From: a virus
Strand: one strand, 5' to 3'
Virus record (IMG/VR): IMGVR_UViG_3300046048_000257
Location: 1-64,000 of that record
Length of the DNA: 64,000 nucleotides
Shown here: in pieces, positions 3,609-31,900 of the stretch
How the letters are laid out: every line of letters begins with the position of its first letter
How positions within the stretch are numbered: position 1 is the stretch's first letter
Position numbers and translations under genes: made by a program
The notes under the pieces: generated by a model
The model's database searches: none
Seen by the model: only the letters and a program-made list of their open reading frames with translations
What the model was told of the DNA's origin: nothing

Positions 3609-5160
3609 AACCGCAGAGGATGACATACTGGCGGCTATGATAACCTCCACAGCTTTTATGGACCGGGCTGTGGGATGGTATAAGCCTGAGTATTTTAGTG
3701 ACTATGCGCAGCTGATAGCTGGCTGGGTGGTGGAGTTTTACCAGCAGTACAGGCAGGCGCCCGGTGAAACTATCCACCATATTTACACTATCCAAAAAGA
3801 AAACATACCCCCCGCCATGGCCTCTAATGTGGCCACTTATCTGGCTAACCTAAATGGATACCCTCATAATTTTAATCTGGAGTACCTGCTGGATAATACC
3901 CGTGAATTTTTTAAGCGGCGCAGTTATGAGTATTTGTTTAACCAAGGCCGTGAGCTTGTGAAAGCCGGGCGTTTAGATGAGGCCATACAGCTGCATGAGG
4001 ATTTTAGGGCTGTGGCACGGGCTACCTCTAAATGGGAAAATCCTTTTGATACAGAGGTGATAAATGCCCATTTTAGGGAGGATAACAGTGAGTATCAGGT
4101 GCTAAAATTCAGGGATGCGCTGGGTGAGCTGGTGGGCCCACTGGAGCGTAACTGGCTGGTGGCTTTCATGGGACCCATGAAACGGGGTAAAAGTTTTTGG
4201 TGTGAGGAGTCTATTTTTGCCGGGCTGGCGCAACAGAAACGGGTGGCGTACATAAATCTGGAAATGCCGGACCGGGCTATTAGGCGGCGGGAGTATAAGC
4301 GCATGACCGCATTACCAGACCTGCCCGCAGTGTATTATATGCCTAAGTTTGATTGTATCCTTAACCAGTATGGTGGGTGCACTATGGTGGAGCGCACTGG
4401 TGGCGGGGTGCTTATACATGGTAATGAGGCGCCTAATTATATGCCCGGCCACCCGTGGAAAGTGTGCACATTTTGCCGGGATAACCGGCTGTATATTAAA
4501 AAAACGTATGGGCATAATAAGTATGAGCCCGCTGTGTGGTACAGTTATACTAATAAGCTGGCTATTACTGCGGATGCTGTGCTTAAGGAGGCAGCTAACG
4601 CTAAAATGCTTTTGAGTGATAACCTCCGGCAGATAACATACCCGGCGTATAGCGCCACACTGGATGATGTGCGCCGGGACTTAGATAATCTGATATATGC
4701 GCAAAAGTTTTACCCGGATATAGTGGTGCTGGACTATGCTGATATTTTGGGCTCAGAGGGCTCATACACGCAGGAGCGCCATAGGCTGGATAACATATGG
4801 AAACGACTAAAGCAGGCAGCTGGTGAAATGAGCGCTTTATGGATTACGGCCACACAGACTAACCGCAAAGGTATGGAGCGTAAGGATATTAAGGAAATAG
4901 ATACCGCTGAGGATATACGCAAAATGGCGCACGTGGATGCCATGTATGGGCTCAATTTAGCGGAGCATGAGCGGGGTAAGCATGTTACCCGTATAAGCCA
5001 GCTGGCCAACAGGCATAAGGAGGCAGAGGCTAAACAGGTGGTGGTACTCCACCAGCTCCAGCTGGGGCTGCCTTATCTGGATAGTGCATGGCGCCCTATA
5101 CCTAAGACAAAGGATGAGCAAAACGGCCAGCCTGAGGTACCACCACTGAGCCCAAAATAA
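3574..5160 (+). CDS. dnaB: DnaB-like replicative helicase
   Basis: Walker A GPMKRGKS, INLEM, Walker B VVLDYAD, ITATQTNR, AEDIRK. Confidence 0.85.
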   Translation: MIVALQQQRVYRTAEDDILAAMITSTAFMDRAVGWYKPEYFSDYAQLIAGWVVEFYQQYRQAPGETIHHIYTIQKENIPPAMASNVATYLANLNGYPHNFNLEYLLDNTREFFKRRSYEYLFNQGRELVKAGRLDEAIQLHEDFRAVARATSKWENPFDTEVINAHFREDNSEYQVLKFRDALGELVGPLERNWLVAFMGPMKRGKSFWCEESIFAGLAQQKRVAYINLEMPDRAIRRREYKRMTALPDLPAVYYMPKFDCILNQYGGCTMVERTGGGVLIHGNEAPNYMPGHPWKVCTFCRDNRLYIKKTYGHNKYEPAVWYSYTNKLAITADAVLKEAANAKMLLSDNLRQITYPAYSATLDDVRRDLDNLIYAQKFYPDIVVLDYADILGSEGSYTQERHRLDNIWKRLKQAAGEMSALWITATQTNRKGMERKDIKEIDTAEDIRKMAHVDAMYGLNLAEHERGKHVTRISQLANRHKEAEAKQVVVLHQLQLGLPYLDSAWRPIPKTKDEQNGQPEVPPLSPK

Positions 5161-25497: not shown

Positions 25498-25694
25498 TGC
25501 CTAAGTTTTGCACGGAGTATTATGTGGGCCCCATGTTATACGGTGATTATGTGGAGGCGCCGGACTGGGATGCTGCACAGGCCATATGTGATGAGCGCCG
25601 GGCTCACTGTAAGGAGCGTGTGGTGGGTAAGCTGGTGGGCGCCATAGAGGTGGATGATATAACTATGATACAGCTGGGGGCTATTTTAAACTGA
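25497..25694 (+). CDS. hypothetical protein
   Basis: Coupled to both neighbours by overlapping stop/start codons. Confidence 0.45.
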   Translation: MPKFCTEYYVGPMLYGDYVEAPDWDAAQAICDERRAHCKERVVGKLVGAIEVDDITMIQLGAILN

Positions 25695-27124
25695 TGCCTG
25701 TACTTAAGCCATACAGCCTGCCTCCAGCAGGCACATTAACCCGCAGATGGCACCCTATGTTTGACCACCCGGAGCAGATACGACTGGTACGCAGCCGGGC
25801 CCGCTTTAACGTGGTGCCTGCTGGGCGCCGCAGTGGCAAAACGGAAATAATTGGAAAGCGTAAGCTGGTGCTCAAAGCCCTTAATGCACACAGAGCGGAC
25901 CTGCCCCAGTTTCATATCCCATACCCGGACCCCCGGCTATTTGTGGCTGCCCCTACCCGTGACCAAGTAAAACGCATATACTGGAACGATTTAAAGCTAT
26001 TGATACCACCCCGGTTTATTGTGGGCAGGCCTAATGAAAGCCAGCTGATGATACAGCTGATTAACGGAGCTGAAATATGGTGTTTAGGGATGGATAAGCC
26101 GGAGCGTGCTGAGGGTGTGGCGTGGGATTACGGTGTGCTGGATGAGTATGGCAACATGAAAAAGGAAACGTGGCCAGAGCACATACGGGCTGCGCTCAGC
26201 GATAGGCGGGGCTCATGTGATTTTATAGGGGTGCCTGAGGGCCGTAACCACTATTATGACTTGTATAAGGATGCACAGGCCAGAGCTGTGTGGGCCCGTA
26301 AAAAGGGCACGCAGACCACATGGGATACTTTTCACTGGATAAGCGCAGATATTCTGGACCCGGAGGAAATAGAGGAGGCAAAGCGTGATTTAGATGAGCT
26401 GACTTACCAGCAGGAGTATGAGGCCAGCTTTATCAATTTTACCGGGCGGGCGTACTGGGCATTTATGGAGCAGTGGCACTGTGCCCCGTTGCAATATAAT
26501 CCAAAGGGTGATTTAGCCTTTTGTTTTGACTTTAACGTGGACCCCGGTGTGGCTGTGGTGGTGCAGGAGCAGCTACTGCCACAGCGTTTACGTGGAGCGG
26601 ACCAGCTGGAGGTAGGTGATGGTATTATAGGTGAGGTATTTATACCACGGGCGAGTAACACCGTAAGGGTGTGCGATAAACTGATACAGGACTGGGGTGA
26701 GCACAGGGGGCGTATTATTTTATACGGTGATTTTACTGGGGGCGCCAGAGGCTCTGCTGCTGTGCTGGGCAGTGACTGGCAGCTGGTAAAGCAGAAAATG
26801 TGGGCCCATTTTAATAAGTCTGGTGAGGACCGGGTGGCCACACGGGTAAAGCCTAATCCACGGGAACGTGACCGGATAAACAGTGTTAACAGCAGGCTGC
26901 TCAGTATTGATAAGCATATACGCTGTATGGTGGACCCCTCCAGAGCCCCTAAAACGGTGCGTGATTTTGAGGGGGTGGCCTTAGTGGAGGGGGGCAGTGG
27001 TGAAATTGATAAAACCACCAGCCCGGAGCTAACCCATTTAACTGATGCCTATGGATATAGAACATGGGTGGAGTATCCGGTAAAAAAGGAGTATGGGCCC
27101 AGCAGGCAGACTCACTGGAAATGA
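25694..27124 (+). CDS. terL: terminase large subunit
   Basis: Walker A AGRRSGKT, APTRDQ, Walker B VLDEYG, QEYEASF, nuclease FDFNVDP and HLTDAYGY. Confidence 0.93.
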   Translation: MPVLKPYSLPPAGTLTRRWHPMFDHPEQIRLVRSRARFNVVPAGRRSGKTEIIGKRKLVLKALNAHRADLPQFHIPYPDPRLFVAAPTRDQVKRIYWNDLKLLIPPRFIVGRPNESQLMIQLINGAEIWCLGMDKPERAEGVAWDYGVLDEYGNMKKETWPEHIRAALSDRRGSCDFIGVPEGRNHYYDLYKDAQARAVWARKKGTQTTWDTFHWISADILDPEEIEEAKRDLDELTYQQEYEASFINFTGRAYWAFMEQWHCAPLQYNPKGDLAFCFDFNVDPGVAVVVQEQLLPQRLRGADQLEVGDGIIGEVFIPRASNTVRVCDKLIQDWGEHRGRIILYGDFTGGARGSAAVLGSDWQLVKQKMWAHFNKSGEDRVATRVKPNPRERDRINSVNSRLLSIDKHIRCMVDPSRAPKTVRDFEGVALVEGGSGEIDKTTSPELTHLTDAYGYRTWVEYPVKKEYGPSRQTHWK

Positions 27125-27579
27125 TAAAGGGGGGTGCGGTGGAGTGTAACACGGGGCATGTGCTCATTACAGCAGAGCGCAGGCCTCCGGGGGTAAAGCC
27201 AAAATGTGGGGTGTGTAGGGATTATATAGCTGCGGATACCCCATGTATCAAGATACGGGCACAGTACACGGAGGCCAGTACATTTTATTTACACGTACAG
27301 TGCGCTGGAGGGGTGCTGTTTAACCTTATGCGGGCCTATAACTATTCACACAATGGGCTCAGCAAGGGTAAAGGCGGCGCAGGGCGTACTTTTGGAGCGC
27401 TGCTGGACACGGCGCCTCCGGCCATAGAGGGTTTTGCGGTGTGTAAGCGGGCAGATGGCCTCCATGTGGAGCTGAAAAAGCGCCGGGGCAGGCCTCCGGG
27501 CGCAAAAAACCGATTTAAAAAGCCCAAAAAGCGGGGGCCGGGCAGGCCTAAGGGCAGTAAGAATAAACCAAAGCGGTAA
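27064..27579 (+). CDS. Zn-finger + two AT-hook DNA-binding protein (true start probably 27121)
   Basis: CGVC...HVQC; KRRGRPPG and KRGPGRPKGSKNKPK. Confidence 0.65.
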   Translation: MGGVSGKKGVWAQQADSLEMIKGGAVECNTGHVLITAERRPPGVKPKCGVCRDYIAADTPCIKIRAQYTEASTFYLHVQCAGGVLFNLMRAYNYSHNGLSKGKGGAGRTFGALLDTAPPAIEGFAVCKRADGLHVELKKRRGRPPGAKNRFKKPKKRGPGRPKGSKNKPKR

Positions 27580-27589
27580 AGGAGGGCGT

Positions 27590-28231
27590 ATGGGTAAACT
27601 TAATGTGGGTGAGTGGAATAAAACCACACCCATAAGCGGCTATGTGATAGAAAACCACCGGGATGTGTGGGAGTCTAATGACCGGATAGACCGGCCTAAA
27701 TGCACACTTTTTGGCAGACCCGCCCAGCAGGCCTTTACGGCCTTTTTTGTGTGGGAGAAACTGCTGGGCCCACTGGAGTTTAAGCGTTTTGTGGAAGTGG
27801 GCACAGGCTTTGGTAACACCAGCGTGTTTTTTATGCTCCACTGTATCCAAAAAGGCGCCATGTTTGTTACCCATGAGCGGATGGCTAACCGCAGCACTAA
27901 CAGCAGCCCACTTAAGGAGCTGCTGGACCTAAAAAGCTGCTGTGTGGTGGGTGATGTGTATGGGCCCACTATCTCACAGGGTATCATGGAGCTGGTGGGC
28001 AGGCCGGGGCGCACCGTTATGTTTTTAGATGGCGGTGATAAGCCCCATGAGTTTAGCCTTTTTGTGCCTGCCCTAAAGGCCGGTGACATAGTGGCGGTCC
28101 ATGACTGGGGCCGGGCCATAAAGCGCCCATGGGTGGAGCATATCATAGAACTTAAGGGCCTCCAGCCGGTACTGGAGGAGGATAACATAAAACTTGAAAC
28201 CCTAACCCGGATGTGGGAGGTGACAAAATGA
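27590..28231 (+). CDS. class I SAM-dependent methyltransferase (Methyltransf_24/CmcI-like)
   Basis: FVEVGTGFG, FLDGG, GDIVAVHDW. Confidence 0.75.
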   Translation: MGKLNVGEWNKTTPISGYVIENHRDVWESNDRIDRPKCTLFGRPAQQAFTAFFVWEKLLGPLEFKRFVEVGTGFGNTSVFFMLHCIQKGAMFVTHERMANRSTNSSPLKELLDLKSCCVVGDVYGPTISQGIMELVGRPGRTVMFLDGGDKPHEFSLFVPALKAGDIVAVHDWGRAIKRPWVEHIIELKGLQPVLEEDNIKLETLTRMWEVTK

Positions 28232-28713
28232 TGGCAGAGGATGCACGCAGGAAAGTGGCCACCCAGCTGGCCATGACCTTTTTGGGCCTGCCCTACCTGT
28301 GGGGCGGTGATGACCCTGTGGCAGGCTTTGACTGTTCTGGCATGTGTATTGAGATTTTAAAGGCAGTGGACCTGCTGCCCCGTAATGGTGACTGGACCGC
28401 AGCTGGCCTGTGGCACCACTTTGCCAATAACCACGGCTGTGCGGTGCTGCGTACACAGGTAAGGGAGGGCTGTTTAGTATTCTGGCATAGCCCCAGTGAT
28501 GCTAAGCGCATAATCCATGTGGAGTATGCGATAAATGAGGAGCTGTGCATAGGCGCCTCCGGGGGCGGGAGCGCCACCACGGACCGGGCACAGGCCATTA
28601 AGCAAAACGCATACATTAAGATACGGCCTTTTAACAGCCGTGCGGGTATTTACGGAGTGGTGGACCCGTTTAAGTTGAAATACGGAGGCGGCTATACCAG
28701 TGAGCCAGTGTGA
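28213..28713 (+). CDS. NlpC/P60 cell-wall peptidase (endolysin candidate)
   Basis: LPYLWGG...GFDCSG...HV catalytic motifs. Confidence 0.85.
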   Translation: MGGDKMMAEDARRKVATQLAMTFLGLPYLWGGDDPVAGFDCSGMCIEILKAVDLLPRNGDWTAAGLWHHFANNHGCAVLRTQVREGCLVFWHSPSDAKRIIHVEYAINEELCIGASGGGSATTDRAQAIKQNAYIKIRPFNSRAGIYGVVDPFKLKYGGGYTSEPV

Positions 28714-28843
28714 GCACAGGGGGCGCTGCCCTATGTGCGGTAAACTGAAACCCTACACAGAGCTGTGCACATGCTGGGAGTTTAAGGATGATAAGATAAT
28801 CCGTAAGGAGGGTGATGATGCCCACAAAAAGCTGGAAAACTAA
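28700..28843 (+). CDS. small Cys-rich protein (47 aa)
   Basis: Manual translation MSQCEHRGRCPMCGKLKPYTELCTCW...; GGAGG RBS upstream. Confidence 0.45.
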   Translation: MSQCEHRGRCPMCGKLKPYTELCTCWEFKDDKIIRKEGDDAHKKLEN

Positions 28844-28970
28844 AGGTAAGTGGTGAGCCCGCTGGGGTAAAAGCGGTAAGGTGTACTGCTCTAAAAATAA
28901 AAACAGTGCTGTGGCCAGAGCTAATAAGCAGGCCAGAGCGGCATACAGCTCAGGGTATAAAGGCAAATAA
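28818..28970 (+). CDS. small basic protein with in-frame TGA (candidate selenoprotein, otherwise pseudogene)
   Basis: AAGGAGG RBS; MPTKSWKTKGKW*ARWGKSGKVYCSKNKNSAVARANKQARAAYSSGYKGK; hairpin 28872-28890. Confidence 0.55.
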
Positions 28971-28971
28971 C

Positions 28972-29679
28972 GTGGCTTTGAGTTTCGGGGCCCCGGATGG
29001 CCGGGGCGCACATGACTGGTTTTTTCATATACCCCGCACAGGGGGTAATTACACGATATACACCATTACCAAGTGCACTGAGCAGGAGGGCAGGCTGGTG
29101 TATGCCCAGCATAAAGGGCATATGCACTGCGGTCCGCTTAAGGTGCCTCCAGATATTATACGCAGGTGCTTTACCATAGTGCGCCCGCCGCTGGACTGGT
29201 ACCGCAGCTTTTACCGGTTTAGGATTACAAAGCACTATGTGGGCCGGAATATGGAGCCCGGCCACCCGCTGGATAAACACATATGGACCGGCCAGCACCA
29301 GAATGGTGGGCACATTTACCCGTTTAATGAGTTTGTGGGCTCAGTTTTGGCTGAGCACCCCCACGGGTATCTTACCAAGCTGTATGGTAAATTTATGCCT
29401 TATGTGGATGAAATACTGAGCACAGATGAGCTAACTAAGGAGCTGCCCGCTATGCTGGAGCGCTGGGGCTATGCGGTGCCACAGGTCCGCAAAAAGCCCC
29501 GCAATATTACTAAGGACCGTGATGGTAACTGGCAGCCTCCGGCCATATTCTATGAGCGGGTGAAACGGGGCCACCCTGTGGATGAGCTGCCCGTGGATAT
29601 TGCACCTGATATACTGGCAGCCATGGAGGCTGCTGAGCATAAAATCATTAGGGACTTACGTGATAGGAGGATACTATGA
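28972..29679 (+). CDS. sulfotransferase-family protein (ORF track starts it at 28906)
   Basis: 5'-PSB-like FFHIPRTGG and 3'-PB-like FTIVRPPLDWYRSFY; GTG at 28972 directly follows the upstream stop. Confidence 0.75.
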   Translation: MALSFGAPDGRGAHDWFFHIPRTGGNYTIYTITKCTEQEGRLVYAQHKGHMHCGPLKVPPDIIRRCFTIVRPPLDWYRSFYRFRITKHYVGRNMEPGHPLDKHIWTGQHQNGGHIYPFNEFVGSVLAEHPHGYLTKLYGKFMPYVDEILSTDELTKELPAMLERWGYAVPQVRKKPRNITKDRDGNWQPPAIFYERVKRGHPVDELPVDIAPDILAAMEAAEHKIIRDLRDRRIL

Positions 29680-30221
29680 GCAAAATGGACCTGTATAAGC
29701 AGCATGCCCCGCAGATACAGAGCGGCGACCTGATAGAATGGCGCAGCGCCAGCCCGCTGGGGGCGGCCATACGGTTGTTTACCCGTAAGGAGGTTAACCA
29801 CTCCAGCATAGCCATACGGCCTAAGGAGTATGCAGCGCTCAGTGACCGGCGTTTTTTAATAGAGGCCTTAAGTGGAGGGCTGGTACCCCGGCTGCTGAGC
29901 ACACGGCTGGAGGAGTTTAAAGGTGAGGTGTACTGGTGCGCCCTTAAGCCCTCTGTGGTAAGTGAGGCGCAGCGGGAGGCCATGGCCTGCTGGGCTATAT
30001 TGGAAACGGTAAAAGGCACCCGGTACGATTATGGCAGCCTTTTTGGCAACATGGTAAGCCGGGTAAATGTGGATGCCAGCCGCTGGTTTTGCAGTGAGGC
30101 GTACACAGCTATGCTCCAGCATGTGCAGCTGGTAGGCAGAAACGTAAAAGCACGGAGGCCGGGTGAGTTTGGCCCGCTGGGGCTGCATATACCGCCTGTG
30201 CTCATTTATAAAAACACATAA
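29676..30221 (+). CDS. permuted papain-like (YiiX/YebB-type) NlpC/P60 protein
   Basis: GDLI, NHSSI, YDY, WFCSE (His precedes Cys). Confidence 0.75.
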   Translation: MSKMDLYKQHAPQIQSGDLIEWRSASPLGAAIRLFTRKEVNHSSIAIRPKEYAALSDRRFLIEALSGGLVPRLLSTRLEEFKGEVYWCALKPSVVSEAQREAMACWAILETVKGTRYDYGSLFGNMVSRVNVDASRWFCSEAYTAMLQHVQLVGRNVKARRPGEFGPLGLHIPPVLIYKNT

Positions 30222-30232
30222 GGAGGTATATT

Positions 30233-31900
30233 ATGGCTAAAACTATGACCATGACTGAGTTAAGGGCCACTCATGTGTACTATGATGCTTATAAGTTGTT
30301 TTGGGATTTTATGCTGGCCAGCTATGAGGGTATCCGGGCGCTGGTGGCCGGTAACCACGTGCTGTTTAAGCATGAGCGTGAAACGCAGGCTAATTATGAC
30401 CGCAGGGTGAGTGAGGCGTATGGCTTTGGGTACAGCCAGAGCATAGTGGATATATTTAATTTTTATCTATTTAAAAAGCCGCCTAAGCGGGATATGGGCC
30501 CACTGGCTAAGGATAAGCAGTGGCTCATGTTTAATGATGACTGTGACCTGTACGGAGCGGACTTTGACCAGTGGATGCTGGAAAGCCAGCGCTATGCGGC
30601 CATACTGGGCCATGTGGGCCTGCTGGTGGATAAGGGCAGCACGGAGTATAAAACCAAAAAGCAGGAGCTGGATAATAAAGTGTATCCATATGTGGCCCGG
30701 TACTTTCCACAGGCCATACTGGACTGGACCTATGACCGGGATGACAATAACCGCCCGTATCTGAGTATGATAAAATTACTGGATGATGATGGCCGGTACC
30801 GGATATGGACCACAGAGGAGTGGGCAGTGTATGCGCCTACTGATGAGCAGGTGAAAAGTGCCCCGCAGGTGCGGGATGCACAGACCGGCCAAGTGCGTGG
30901 TGGTGGAGGCACCACGGGTGAGGAGCCGGAGGTGGAGCCGGAGGATTTTGGCCCTAATCCATTTATGAAAAATGGAGGGCGGGGTGAAATACCTTTTGTG
31001 TGGATGTATAACCTAAAAAGCAAGCTGCGTAATATCGGCGTGAGTGACATAAAGGATGTGGCGTACATAGATGGCTCCATAATCCGTAACCTCAGTGAGG
31101 GTGAGGAGGTGATAACTTATGGGGCATTTCCTATGCTGCGCACCCCTATGCGTGAAAAAGGGCTGGCGCCCTCCGATAAATCAGATGTTAAGGATGTAGG
31201 CATAACCGCCCTGATGGAGTTTGACCCGGAGCACCCGGAAAGTAAGCCGGACTGGATGGAGGCGGCGGTAAGTGAGCCCATAGATGCCATACTGGCGTGG
31301 ATGCTGCGCAAGGTGGAGGAAATATACCGCAGCTCTAATGCAGGGGGCATGGCGGGCACAGAAATACAGAGCCAAGCTAAAAGCGGTACCGCCCTTAAGG
31401 CTGAGTTTCAGCTGCTTAACTCAAAGCTGGTAAGCAAAGGGGCTAACACGGAGCAGAGTGAGAAAAGCATAGTGCGGTACTGGGGCATGTGGCAAAAAAT
31501 GGATGAGGCACAGATGGAAAAAGTGGTAATTGAGTACAGCCGCACCTATGATATAGAAAATCTAACGCAGGACCTTGAAAACGCACTAACGGCCAAAACA
31601 TTAGTGATGAGTAAGACTTTCAGGGCCCAGCTCCAGAAAAACGTGGCCCGCCAGATGCTGCCCGCAGCTGAGCCCCGCCTGCTGGATGATATAGATAAGG
31701 AAATAGATGAGGCTGTGGAGGAGCAGGAGGGCGCACCGGATACCTCCGGCGCCGGTAATATAGATGAGTTTGGAAGTAAGCCGGGTGAGGGTGCCACTGC
31801 TGCGGATGCTGTGGCCAGACCCGGCCAATTAGTACCAATACCCGGAGGTAAAAGCGTTGTACCGCCTGTGGCCTCCGGTACGGGAGGAGGTGAGCGGTAA
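30233..31900 (+). CDS. portal protein
   Basis: 555 aa after TerL; HERET..NY..R, GEIPFV, SGTALKAEFQLLN..L; acidic tail. Confidence 0.85.
   Translation: MAKTMTMTELRATHVYYDAYKLFWDFMLASYEGIRALVAGNHVLFKHERETQANYDRRVSEAYGFGYSQSIVDIFNFYLFKKPPKRDMGPLAKDKQWLMFNDDCDLYGADFDQWMLESQRYAAILGHVGLLVDKGSTEYKTKKQELDNKVYPYVARYFPQAILDWTYDRDDNNRPYLSMIKLLDDDGRYRIWTTEEWAVYAPTDEQVKSAPQVRDAQTGQVRGGGGTTGEEPEVEPEDFGPNPFMKNGGRGEIPFVWMYNLKSKLRNIGVSDIKDVAYIDGSIIRNLSEGEEVITYGAFPMLRTPMREKGLAPSDKSDVKDVGITALMEFDPEHPESKPDWMEAAVSEPIDAILAWMLRKVEEIYRSSNAGGMAGTEIQSQAKSGTALKAEFQLLNSKLVSKGANTEQSEKSIVRYWGMWQKMDEAQMEKVVIEYSRTYDIENLTQDLENALTAKTLVMSKTFRAQLQKNVARQMLPAAEPRLLDDIDKEIDEAVEEQEGAPDTSGAGNIDEFGSKPGEGATAADAVARPGQLVPIPGGKSVVPPVASGTGGGER

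Follow-up and report, generated by a model that had tools for sequence, protein, structure and literature searches.

Can a phage gene that is interrupted by a UGA codon be translated to its end, and, if so, which amino acid does the UGA specify? The question is raised by a small gene at 28818-28970 on the plus strand of a 64,000-nucleotide stretch of viral DNA (the window), which comprises the first 64 kb of IMG/VR record IMGVR_UViG_3300046048_000257, a single contig of 86,878 bp that CheckV classes as a complete virus. An earlier note, made from the letters of the window alone, had proposed that an in-frame UGA in this gene encodes selenocysteine (Sec), with a downstream hairpin acting as a bacterial Sec insertion sequence (SECIS). 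After comparing the gene with its relatives, we consider it probable that the host system carries out SelB/SECIS-type insertion of Sec at the UGA, giving a Sec-Cys pair.

The interrupted gene and its cysteine-bearing relatives

The elements of the locus that carry the argument are as follows.

28805-28811, plus strand: Shine-Dalgarno-like AAGGAGG, read from the sequence, 6 nt before the ATG at 28818
28818-28970, plus strand: gene for a small basic protein, 50 codons plus stop, UGA at codon 13 (from translation, homologues, profile and selection)
28854-28856, plus strand: in-frame TGA, proposed Sec codon, residue 13 counted from ATG 28818 (from the Cys/TGA alignment)
28872-28890, plus strand: SECIS-like hairpin, 7-bp stem 28872-28878/28884-28890, apical loop AGGUG 28879-28883 (minimum free energy [MFE] structure, dG -7.3)
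28887-28889, plus strand: TGC, the partner Cys, residue 24, 11 residues past the UGA (from covariation of the Cys pair)

On re-reading and translation, the ribosome-binding site, the ATG at 28818, the TGA and the TAA at 28968-28970 all lie where the earlier note had put them, as does the Cys that it had described 11 residues downstream of the UGA. There are two ATGs, at 28815 and 28818, and the second is taken as the start because the homologues begin with MP. Past the TGA the frame reads ARWGKSGKVYC...AAYSSGYKGK to the TAA, from which a single base separates GTG 28972 of the next gene. The read-through product is MPTKSWKTKGKW-U-ARWGKSGKVYCSKNKNSAVARANKQARAAYSSGYKGK, and 28818-28970 is, by comparison with its homologues, a single gene spanning the UGA.

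The earlier note had likened the part after the UGA to a recurrent small phage protein of basic character. Such a protein does exist: a profile search returned 138 members at E<=1. Homologues were sought by using TerL as bait, which brought in 34 related IMG/VR loci. In a tblastn search of these loci, L005, L004 and L007 gave full-length, ungapped matches with 56-60% identity (E 2e-14 to 2e-13) that align from Met-Pro to the C-terminus, the other eight rows having E >= 0.39; across IMG/VR phage contigs, full-length homologues show 56-67% identity. A profile built from the window protein and these three homologues added loci L035 and L036. The profile was searched against a protein collection of 5.8 billion clusters, and 120 of the 138 matches (E<=1) were listed. 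A single-sequence protein search with the window protein gave no candidate, and relatives there were reached by profile searches only.

Proteins of this family are found only in phages, are 40-52 aa long and very basic, begin with M-P, contain a WG-x-SGK-x-Y turn and have a KQARAIYASGYKKK-like tail, which in the window gene takes the family form Q-x-x-A-x-Y-x-x-GYK. Columns M2, P3, G18, G21, Y24, A36, Q39, A42, Y44, G47 and Y48 are invariant across 70 sequences. A scan of IMG/VR with a C-terminal DNA motif yielded at least 119 loci, all of them family members, and inspection by eye found no in-frame stop among the 119 listed (two loci are cut by contig ends). P0045, a typical member, hits phrog_31267 (function unknown; E 8.8e-13); P0003, from a longer subfamily, scores no match to it. 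Pfam has no match for the window protein or the family, a PDB sequence search gave a sole match at E 0.73 and no relative for the family, and in the ESM Atlas the family matches only unnamed viral clusters.

Among the neighbours of family genes at the scanned loci (107 upstream, 99 downstream), TerL is the commonest on the downstream side (at least 14 loci), followed by the head scaffolding protein (at least nine). These neighbours indicate that the family belongs to the head and packaging module, and its proteins may act in the head or in DNA packaging. On the upstream side (loci L060-L178), a PhoH-like gene occurs in at least seven cases and a 709-aa unknown protein in at least 11.

The alignment of homologues that the earlier note had suggested as a check gives a clear result at the UGA column: a TGY codon for Cys stands opposite the window TGA in all close homologues (L004, L005, L007, L035, L036 and P0003-P0006), and the TGA itself is conserved in one further locus, the IMG/VR contig L040. 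Two columns, one three residues before WG and the other after the conserved Tyr, both hold Cys in 9 of the 120 matches listed and neither does in 111, with no case (0/120) of a single Cys. The pair has the form C-x10-C around the WG-x-SGK-x-Y turn, and the window gene keeps the second Cys. The two Cys are predicted from this covariation to act as a pair flanking the conserved turn, by way of a disulfide or a shared ligand site. The window gene falls in the longer 'WK...WCA' Cys-pair subfamily, whose nine rows are seven Cys forms (L004, L005, L007, L035, L036, P0005 and P0006) and two UGA forms; UGA replaces the first Cys only in the window gene and L040. The sister group of this subfamily contains five further Cys-pair members. 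When otherwise identical DNA patterns were run against IMG/VR, 11 Cys-Cys loci were found vs one TGA-Cys locus. Elsewhere in the family, L070, L073, L128, L175 and L178 have another Cys pair at different columns (MPI-x-R-C ... GK-C-Y), and cross-links appear to have been acquired more than once.

The second UGA form and the downstream hairpin

L040 was the one IMG/VR contig returned by the degenerate DNA pattern 'TGA-x2-WG-x-SGK-x-YC'. Its minus strand encodes MPVRTWKRKGKY-U-AKWGGSGKVYCRKSKTAAKSLASRQARAAYSSGYKG, equal in length to the window product, with the TGA at the same codon and the frame intact. Of 147 nt, the two genes have 97 in common (66% nucleotide identity). Downstream of the UGA, the proportion of differences at synonymous sites (pS) is 0.80 (19.0/23.8 sites) and that at nonsynonymous sites (pN) is 0.26 (22.0/84.2 sites), and third codon positions account for 21 of the 41 differences. 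That pS so far exceeds pN indicates coding constraint, i.e., purifying selection, past the UGA. The 11 upstream codons (pS 0.24, pN 0.28) are too few to judge alone, and the M-P...W-K start of the family is present. Because L040 has no in-frame ATG, GTG or TTG past the TGA, its conserved C-terminal 36 residues can be made only by passing the UGA.

The phage of L040 is a distant one: identity to the window is 60% for TerL, 49% for the portal and 38% for two neighbouring genes, and the gene order differs. In a small phylogenetic tree, the two UGA forms group as sisters (ultrafast bootstrap 82, SH-aLRT 94) inside the 'WK...WCA' Cys subfamily (95/95), for which the simplest history would be one TGY-to-TGA change that has been retained since. 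That L040 is diverged and keeps the TGA largely rules out both an error of sequencing and a nonsense mutation of recent date. The idea that the window and L040 are chimeric copies of one erroneous sequence was also considered and is excluded by their 50 nucleotide differences. Judged from these alignments, the UGA is conserved and read through.

Searches for further UGA forms were made in several collections. An N-terminal pattern run against IMG/VR returned L040 and two chance matches, and a pattern with TGA at the second Cys column gave three chance matches only. JGI metagenome contigs contained 19 pattern matches, with 0 family members and no UGA form; representative prokaryote genomes, searched with TGN at the column, contained 43 pattern matches and 0 family members. 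A profile search of protein collections gave no further close relative. Scanning the whole 86.9-kb genome for UGA-interrupted open reading frames (ORFs) produced 51 mechanical candidates, none convincing when inspected by eye without homologue comparison.

Elsewhere in these phages TGA is used as a terminator: it ends 13 of the 34 mechanical window ORFs that reach 200 aa, that of TerL included, and three of nine ORFs in L040. ARAGORN found no tRNA gene in the whole genome, hence no suppressor tRNA, and the phage genome has no match to tRNA-Sec, SelB-wing or SelA. With TGA an ordinary stop and no tRNA or Sel genes in the phage, recoding would be site-specific and require host factors. Genome-wide reassignment of TGA, as in codes 4/25 and recoded phages, was rejected on two grounds, the regular ending of ORFs by TGA and the lack of a suppressor tRNA.

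The 7-bp stem AGCGGTA/TACTGCT, drawn in the earlier note with the loop AGGTG 22 nt after the UGA, is identical to the MFE hairpin. In the window RNA (AGCGGUA / AGGUG / UACUGCU), the stem begins 15 nt and the loop 22 nt after the UGA. The hairpin of L040 (GCGGCAA / GGUCUA / UUGCCGU; dG -10.9) also has a 7-bp stem, with its loop 23 nt after the UGA. Both loops have a G within the first two bases, and a GGU triplet occupies +24 to +26 in both. Bacterial SECIS elements are sought 16-37 nt from the UGA with a loop of 3-14 nt. Both UGA forms have a stem-loop with a G in the apical loop, as judged by an in-house hairpin scan, not bSECISearch. The two hairpins dominate their 47-nt ensembles (frequency 0.64 in the window and 0.69 in L040), and 10 of the 11 distinct Cys forms have no structure better than -3.2 at the hairpin site.

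Synonymous resampling was applied to the 20 codons after the UGA or TGY codon, with equally stable G-loop hairpins counted 16-37 nt downstream. Under uniform codon choice, such hairpins arise in 3.6% of resampled sequences for the window, 2.5% for L040 and 5.3% to 100% for the Cys forms. The UGA forms are the two lowest of the 13, which random ranking would produce with a probability of 1 in 78. When the codon usage of the phage is applied, the values are 2.5% for the window and 8.7% for L040.

Probable selenocysteine insertion and competing explanations

A rule for recognizing new selenoproteins, as worded in the accessible text of its source, calls for a TGA in frame with a stem-loop behind it, for two or more Cys homologues and for two or more TGA-bearing sequences that differ from each other (PMC1976440). 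The window and L040 provide two different TGA sequences, beside the seven Cys forms and the two hairpins described above. By this rule in the wording available, the gene, on its sequence, counts as a new selenoprotein family and not as a mere candidate. The Sec reading of the earlier note thus gains support from the Cys column, the conserved TGA and the hairpins in both UGA forms, Sec itself being what we infer from them.

In the proposed mechanism, the UGA at codon 13 would be decoded as Sec by host SelA/SelB/SelC/SelD. The hairpin 15 nt past the UGA would recruit SelB, probably the decoding factor, and would be a bacterial-type SECIS within the ORF. Residue 13 would then be Sec, which would substitute for one member of the covarying Cys pair and give a Sec-Cys pair in the mature protein. 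This pair may form an Se-S bond, the simplest form of which would be a selenenylsulfide that staples a small hairpin of the protein. A more specific proposal, which we put forward tentatively and hold to be possible but doubtful, is that the Sec is structural and non-catalytic: a selenenylsulfide would replace the disulfide staple of a head- or DNA-associated protein and remain stable in the reducing anoxic sediment in which the phage lives, the phage obtaining it by offering a minimal SECIS to host SelB. Any advantage of the Se-S bond would presumably lie in that reducing setting.

Several observations weigh against Sec insertion or temper it. Only two UGA forms were found in the collections searched, and no matched metagenome piece spans 28854-28856, leaving base 28856 without read support, which is neutral as evidence. 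The phage carries no selABCD genes, and their presence in whatever host it infects is presumed. As to the hairpin, the Cys form L223 has a stronger one (-11.3, loop AAAA), the sole Cys form at dG <= -7. Dinucleotide shuffling gives modest z values (-0.18 for 71 nt; -1.7 and -1.5 for 47 nt in the window and L040, respectively). The stems of the two UGA forms pair in different registers, with no compensatory covariation, and the peptide motif SG...YC by itself promotes complementarity. Rfam gave no relevant match, and no SECIS family scored at E<=10 for window positions 27000-31000 or L040 positions 4300-5100; this null says little, because the SECIS models are built on particular cellular genes. 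Downstream hairpins can also stimulate plain readthrough. A structural, non-catalytic Sec is, to our knowledge, unusual among selenoproteins. Finally, Sec insertion is inefficient for most selenoprotein mRNAs, according to the accessible text of a recoding review (PMC8310308), and this fits poorly with a protein needed in quantity.

What else could account for a conserved UGA in this frame? Leaky or programmed readthrough without SelB would have a near-cognate tRNA, usually that for Trp, read the UGA, perhaps aided by the hairpin, and would yield mostly a 12-residue peptide and little full protein. UGA is the leakiest stop codon, it is evidently read through here, and a hairpin follows it; hairpins are not specific to SelB, and a Sec capacity of the host is only presumed. 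Nevertheless, every close homologue has Cys at the column, which covaries with its partner (9 both, 111 neither, 0 single), and Trp would break the pair; both loops, moreover, have a G in the first two bases at a near-equal distance from the UGA. A swap of Sec and Cys one base apart is described as a classical selenoprotein signature in the text available to us (PMC1976440). We therefore rate simple readthrough as unlikely. The reading of UGA as Cys, either by a tRNA-Sec-like tRNA charged with Cys and acting via SelB or by a tRNA-Cys with a UCA anticodon, shares with Sec insertion the evidence of the Cys column, the conserved UGA and the hairpin. Cys tRNAs that read UGA have been described in some anaerobic bacteria, but they are rare and the phage encodes none. 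Plain Cys, furthermore, would give UGA no advantage over TGY, yet the UGA was kept while synonymous sites were saturated, and we hold this decoding to be improbable.

Very improbable, in turn, is a dead gene or an error, by which a TGC or TGT in a dispensable gene became TGA through nonsense mutation or through faulty assembly or sequencing. Such a change from TGY needs one base only, the base lacks read coverage, and in-frame stops are otherwise absent from the 119 family loci listed, but in L040, a second assembly made from a different sample, this codon is likewise TGA at 66% nucleotide identity, with pS 0.80 vs pN 0.26 and an intact frame. Slighter still is the chance that the region encodes two products or is read in the wrong frame, with the downstream part either translated from its own start at GTG 28881 or forming an N-terminal extension of the next gene. 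Here GTG 28881 does open a 29-aa ORF, and GTG 28906 opens a 257-aa ORF that overlaps 28906-28970 in a frame open from 28819. However, L040 has no ATG, GTG or TTG in frame past its TGA, and the residues between the UGA and GTG 28881 (ARWGKSGK) are part of the most conserved motif of the family. The substitutions also obey the frame of the candidate, as the share of third positions (21/41) among the downstream differences shows, and the alignment of the next gene with its L040 homologue begins only at residue 12, counted from the 28972 start.

Genomic setting, precedents and meaning

The candidate gene sits in a variable block with TerL on one side and the portal gene on the other. Nearly all long ORFs of the window are on its plus strand, and the window also encodes a DNA polymerase, a DnaB-like helicase, a tape measure protein and tail proteins. 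The surrounding features are listed here.

25694-27124: TerL
27064-27579: 171-aa ORF overlapping the TerL end, with a C-terminal tail of repeated GRP/PKK motifs
28700-28843, plus strand: 47-aa Cys-rich ORF (from the ORF list), overlapping the candidate start by 26 nt in another frame
28972-29679, plus strand: next gene, 235 aa, from GTG 28972; frame open from 28819, with a mechanical ORF from GTG 28906 overlapping the 3' half of the candidate
29676-30218: 181-aa ORF before the portal gene, matching phrog_1128 (enoyl-CoA hydratase/carnitine racemase-like; E 1.3e-12)
30233-31900: portal

The 47-aa ORF has six Cys, spaced as in a small zinc ribbon; it has a homologue in L001 (5132-5251; 45% identity) and no Pfam match. 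Within it, AAAAAG at 28826-28831 is a place where a -1 slip would enter the frame of the next gene, open over 28819-29679; the slip heptamer is imperfect, and the substitution pattern favours the frame of the candidate. The 235-aa next gene has no Pfam or PHROG match, and the sequence FFHIPRTGG near its N-terminus is presumably sulfotransferase-like. Its homologue in L040 (3508-4107, minus strand, 38% identity) likewise follows the UGA gene, and the pair is thus kept together in both phages. Using the sulfotransferase-like neighbour as bait in IMG/VR gave three pattern matches, none confirmed. The 181-aa ORF starts in overlap with the previous stop (ATGA). The 171-aa ORF has no Pfam or PHROG match, and we take its GRP/PKK tail to be AT-hook-like.

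Contigs from sediment and marsh metagenome runs of several studies contain stretches identical to the window, and none of the matching runs listed is an RNA dataset. For a read-level comparison, Logan contigs of runs X1-X4 were set against window positions 26500-31500, about 21% of X1 being read. Identical pieces were found in one further sediment run and, from other studies, in two marsh runs; X2 pieces covering 27111-28393 and 28917-29464 and an X4 piece covering 28627-28777 have 0 other letters vs the window. The portal gene has a diverged relative in one marsh run (over 31202-31497, at 14-15 differences per 150 nt). Among 50,697 records of published phages, neither blastn with 28200-30250 nor tblastn with the read-through protein gave a match.

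The bacterial prototype of a SECIS that lies within the ORF and is read by SelB is fdhF of Escherichia coli. The phage gene resembles bacterial selenoprotein genes in having a UGA at a Cys column, a stem-loop in the ORF, a G early in the loop about 22 nt from the UGA and at least two diverged UGA sequences. Unlike them, it would borrow all trans-acting factors, and it encodes a 50-residue basic phage-only protein, not a redox enzyme, with the Sec in a covarying Cys pair. Readthrough is also known from phage Q-beta, where the residue inserted into the coat readthrough protein does not matter and the short form is the chief functional protein. As there, the full phage product requires the ribosome to pass a UGA; here, in contrast, termination would leave only 12 residues, and the column of the UGA holds a Cys that is conserved and paired. 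Compared with phrog_31267-type proteins, the M-P start, turn, tail and head/packaging block are shared, whereas the longer Cys-pair subfamily and the UGA are not.

Viral selenoproteins have been described in poxviruses, where glutathione peroxidase homologues of molluscum contagiosum virus and fowlpox virus depend on host machinery to redefine UGA and the fowlpox SECIS lies inside the coding region, according to the accessible text of a 2021 recoding review (PMC8310308). In that text, these two glutathione peroxidases are the only viral examples named, with no phage among them. Like the poxvirus genes, the window gene is viral and its UGA is, we propose, redefined as Sec by the host. The poxvirus proteins, however, are captured cellular enzymes with a eukaryotic SECIS and SBP2, whereas the window gene encodes a small phage-specific protein with a bacterial-type hairpin. 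No title or abstract in the literature searched describes a natural phage selenoprotein. The main texts of bacterial selenoprotein resources, in the parts available, do not contain the word 'phage', and the BSepDB/deep-Sep supplements might list phage entries (PMC12013277, PMC13326102); the accessible text of a crAss-like phage paper mentions no phage selenoprotein (PMC12386605). The mechanism, bacterial Sec recoding, is a known one, and its setting and the protein family are new.

The importance of the finding is tempered by the presence of the UGA in two sequences only. If the Sec reading is true, phages can exploit the SelB pathway of their hosts, and a 19-nt hairpin within a 150-nt gene suffices for its use. 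Sec would also be selectable as one half of a structural Cys pair. Gene callers truncate such genes at the UGA, and phage selenoproteins are therefore invisible in protein databases, where the window protein itself lacks an entry. The gene would be a compact natural UGA-plus-SECIS cassette, and the presence of such a gene in a phage would predict a Sec-using host.

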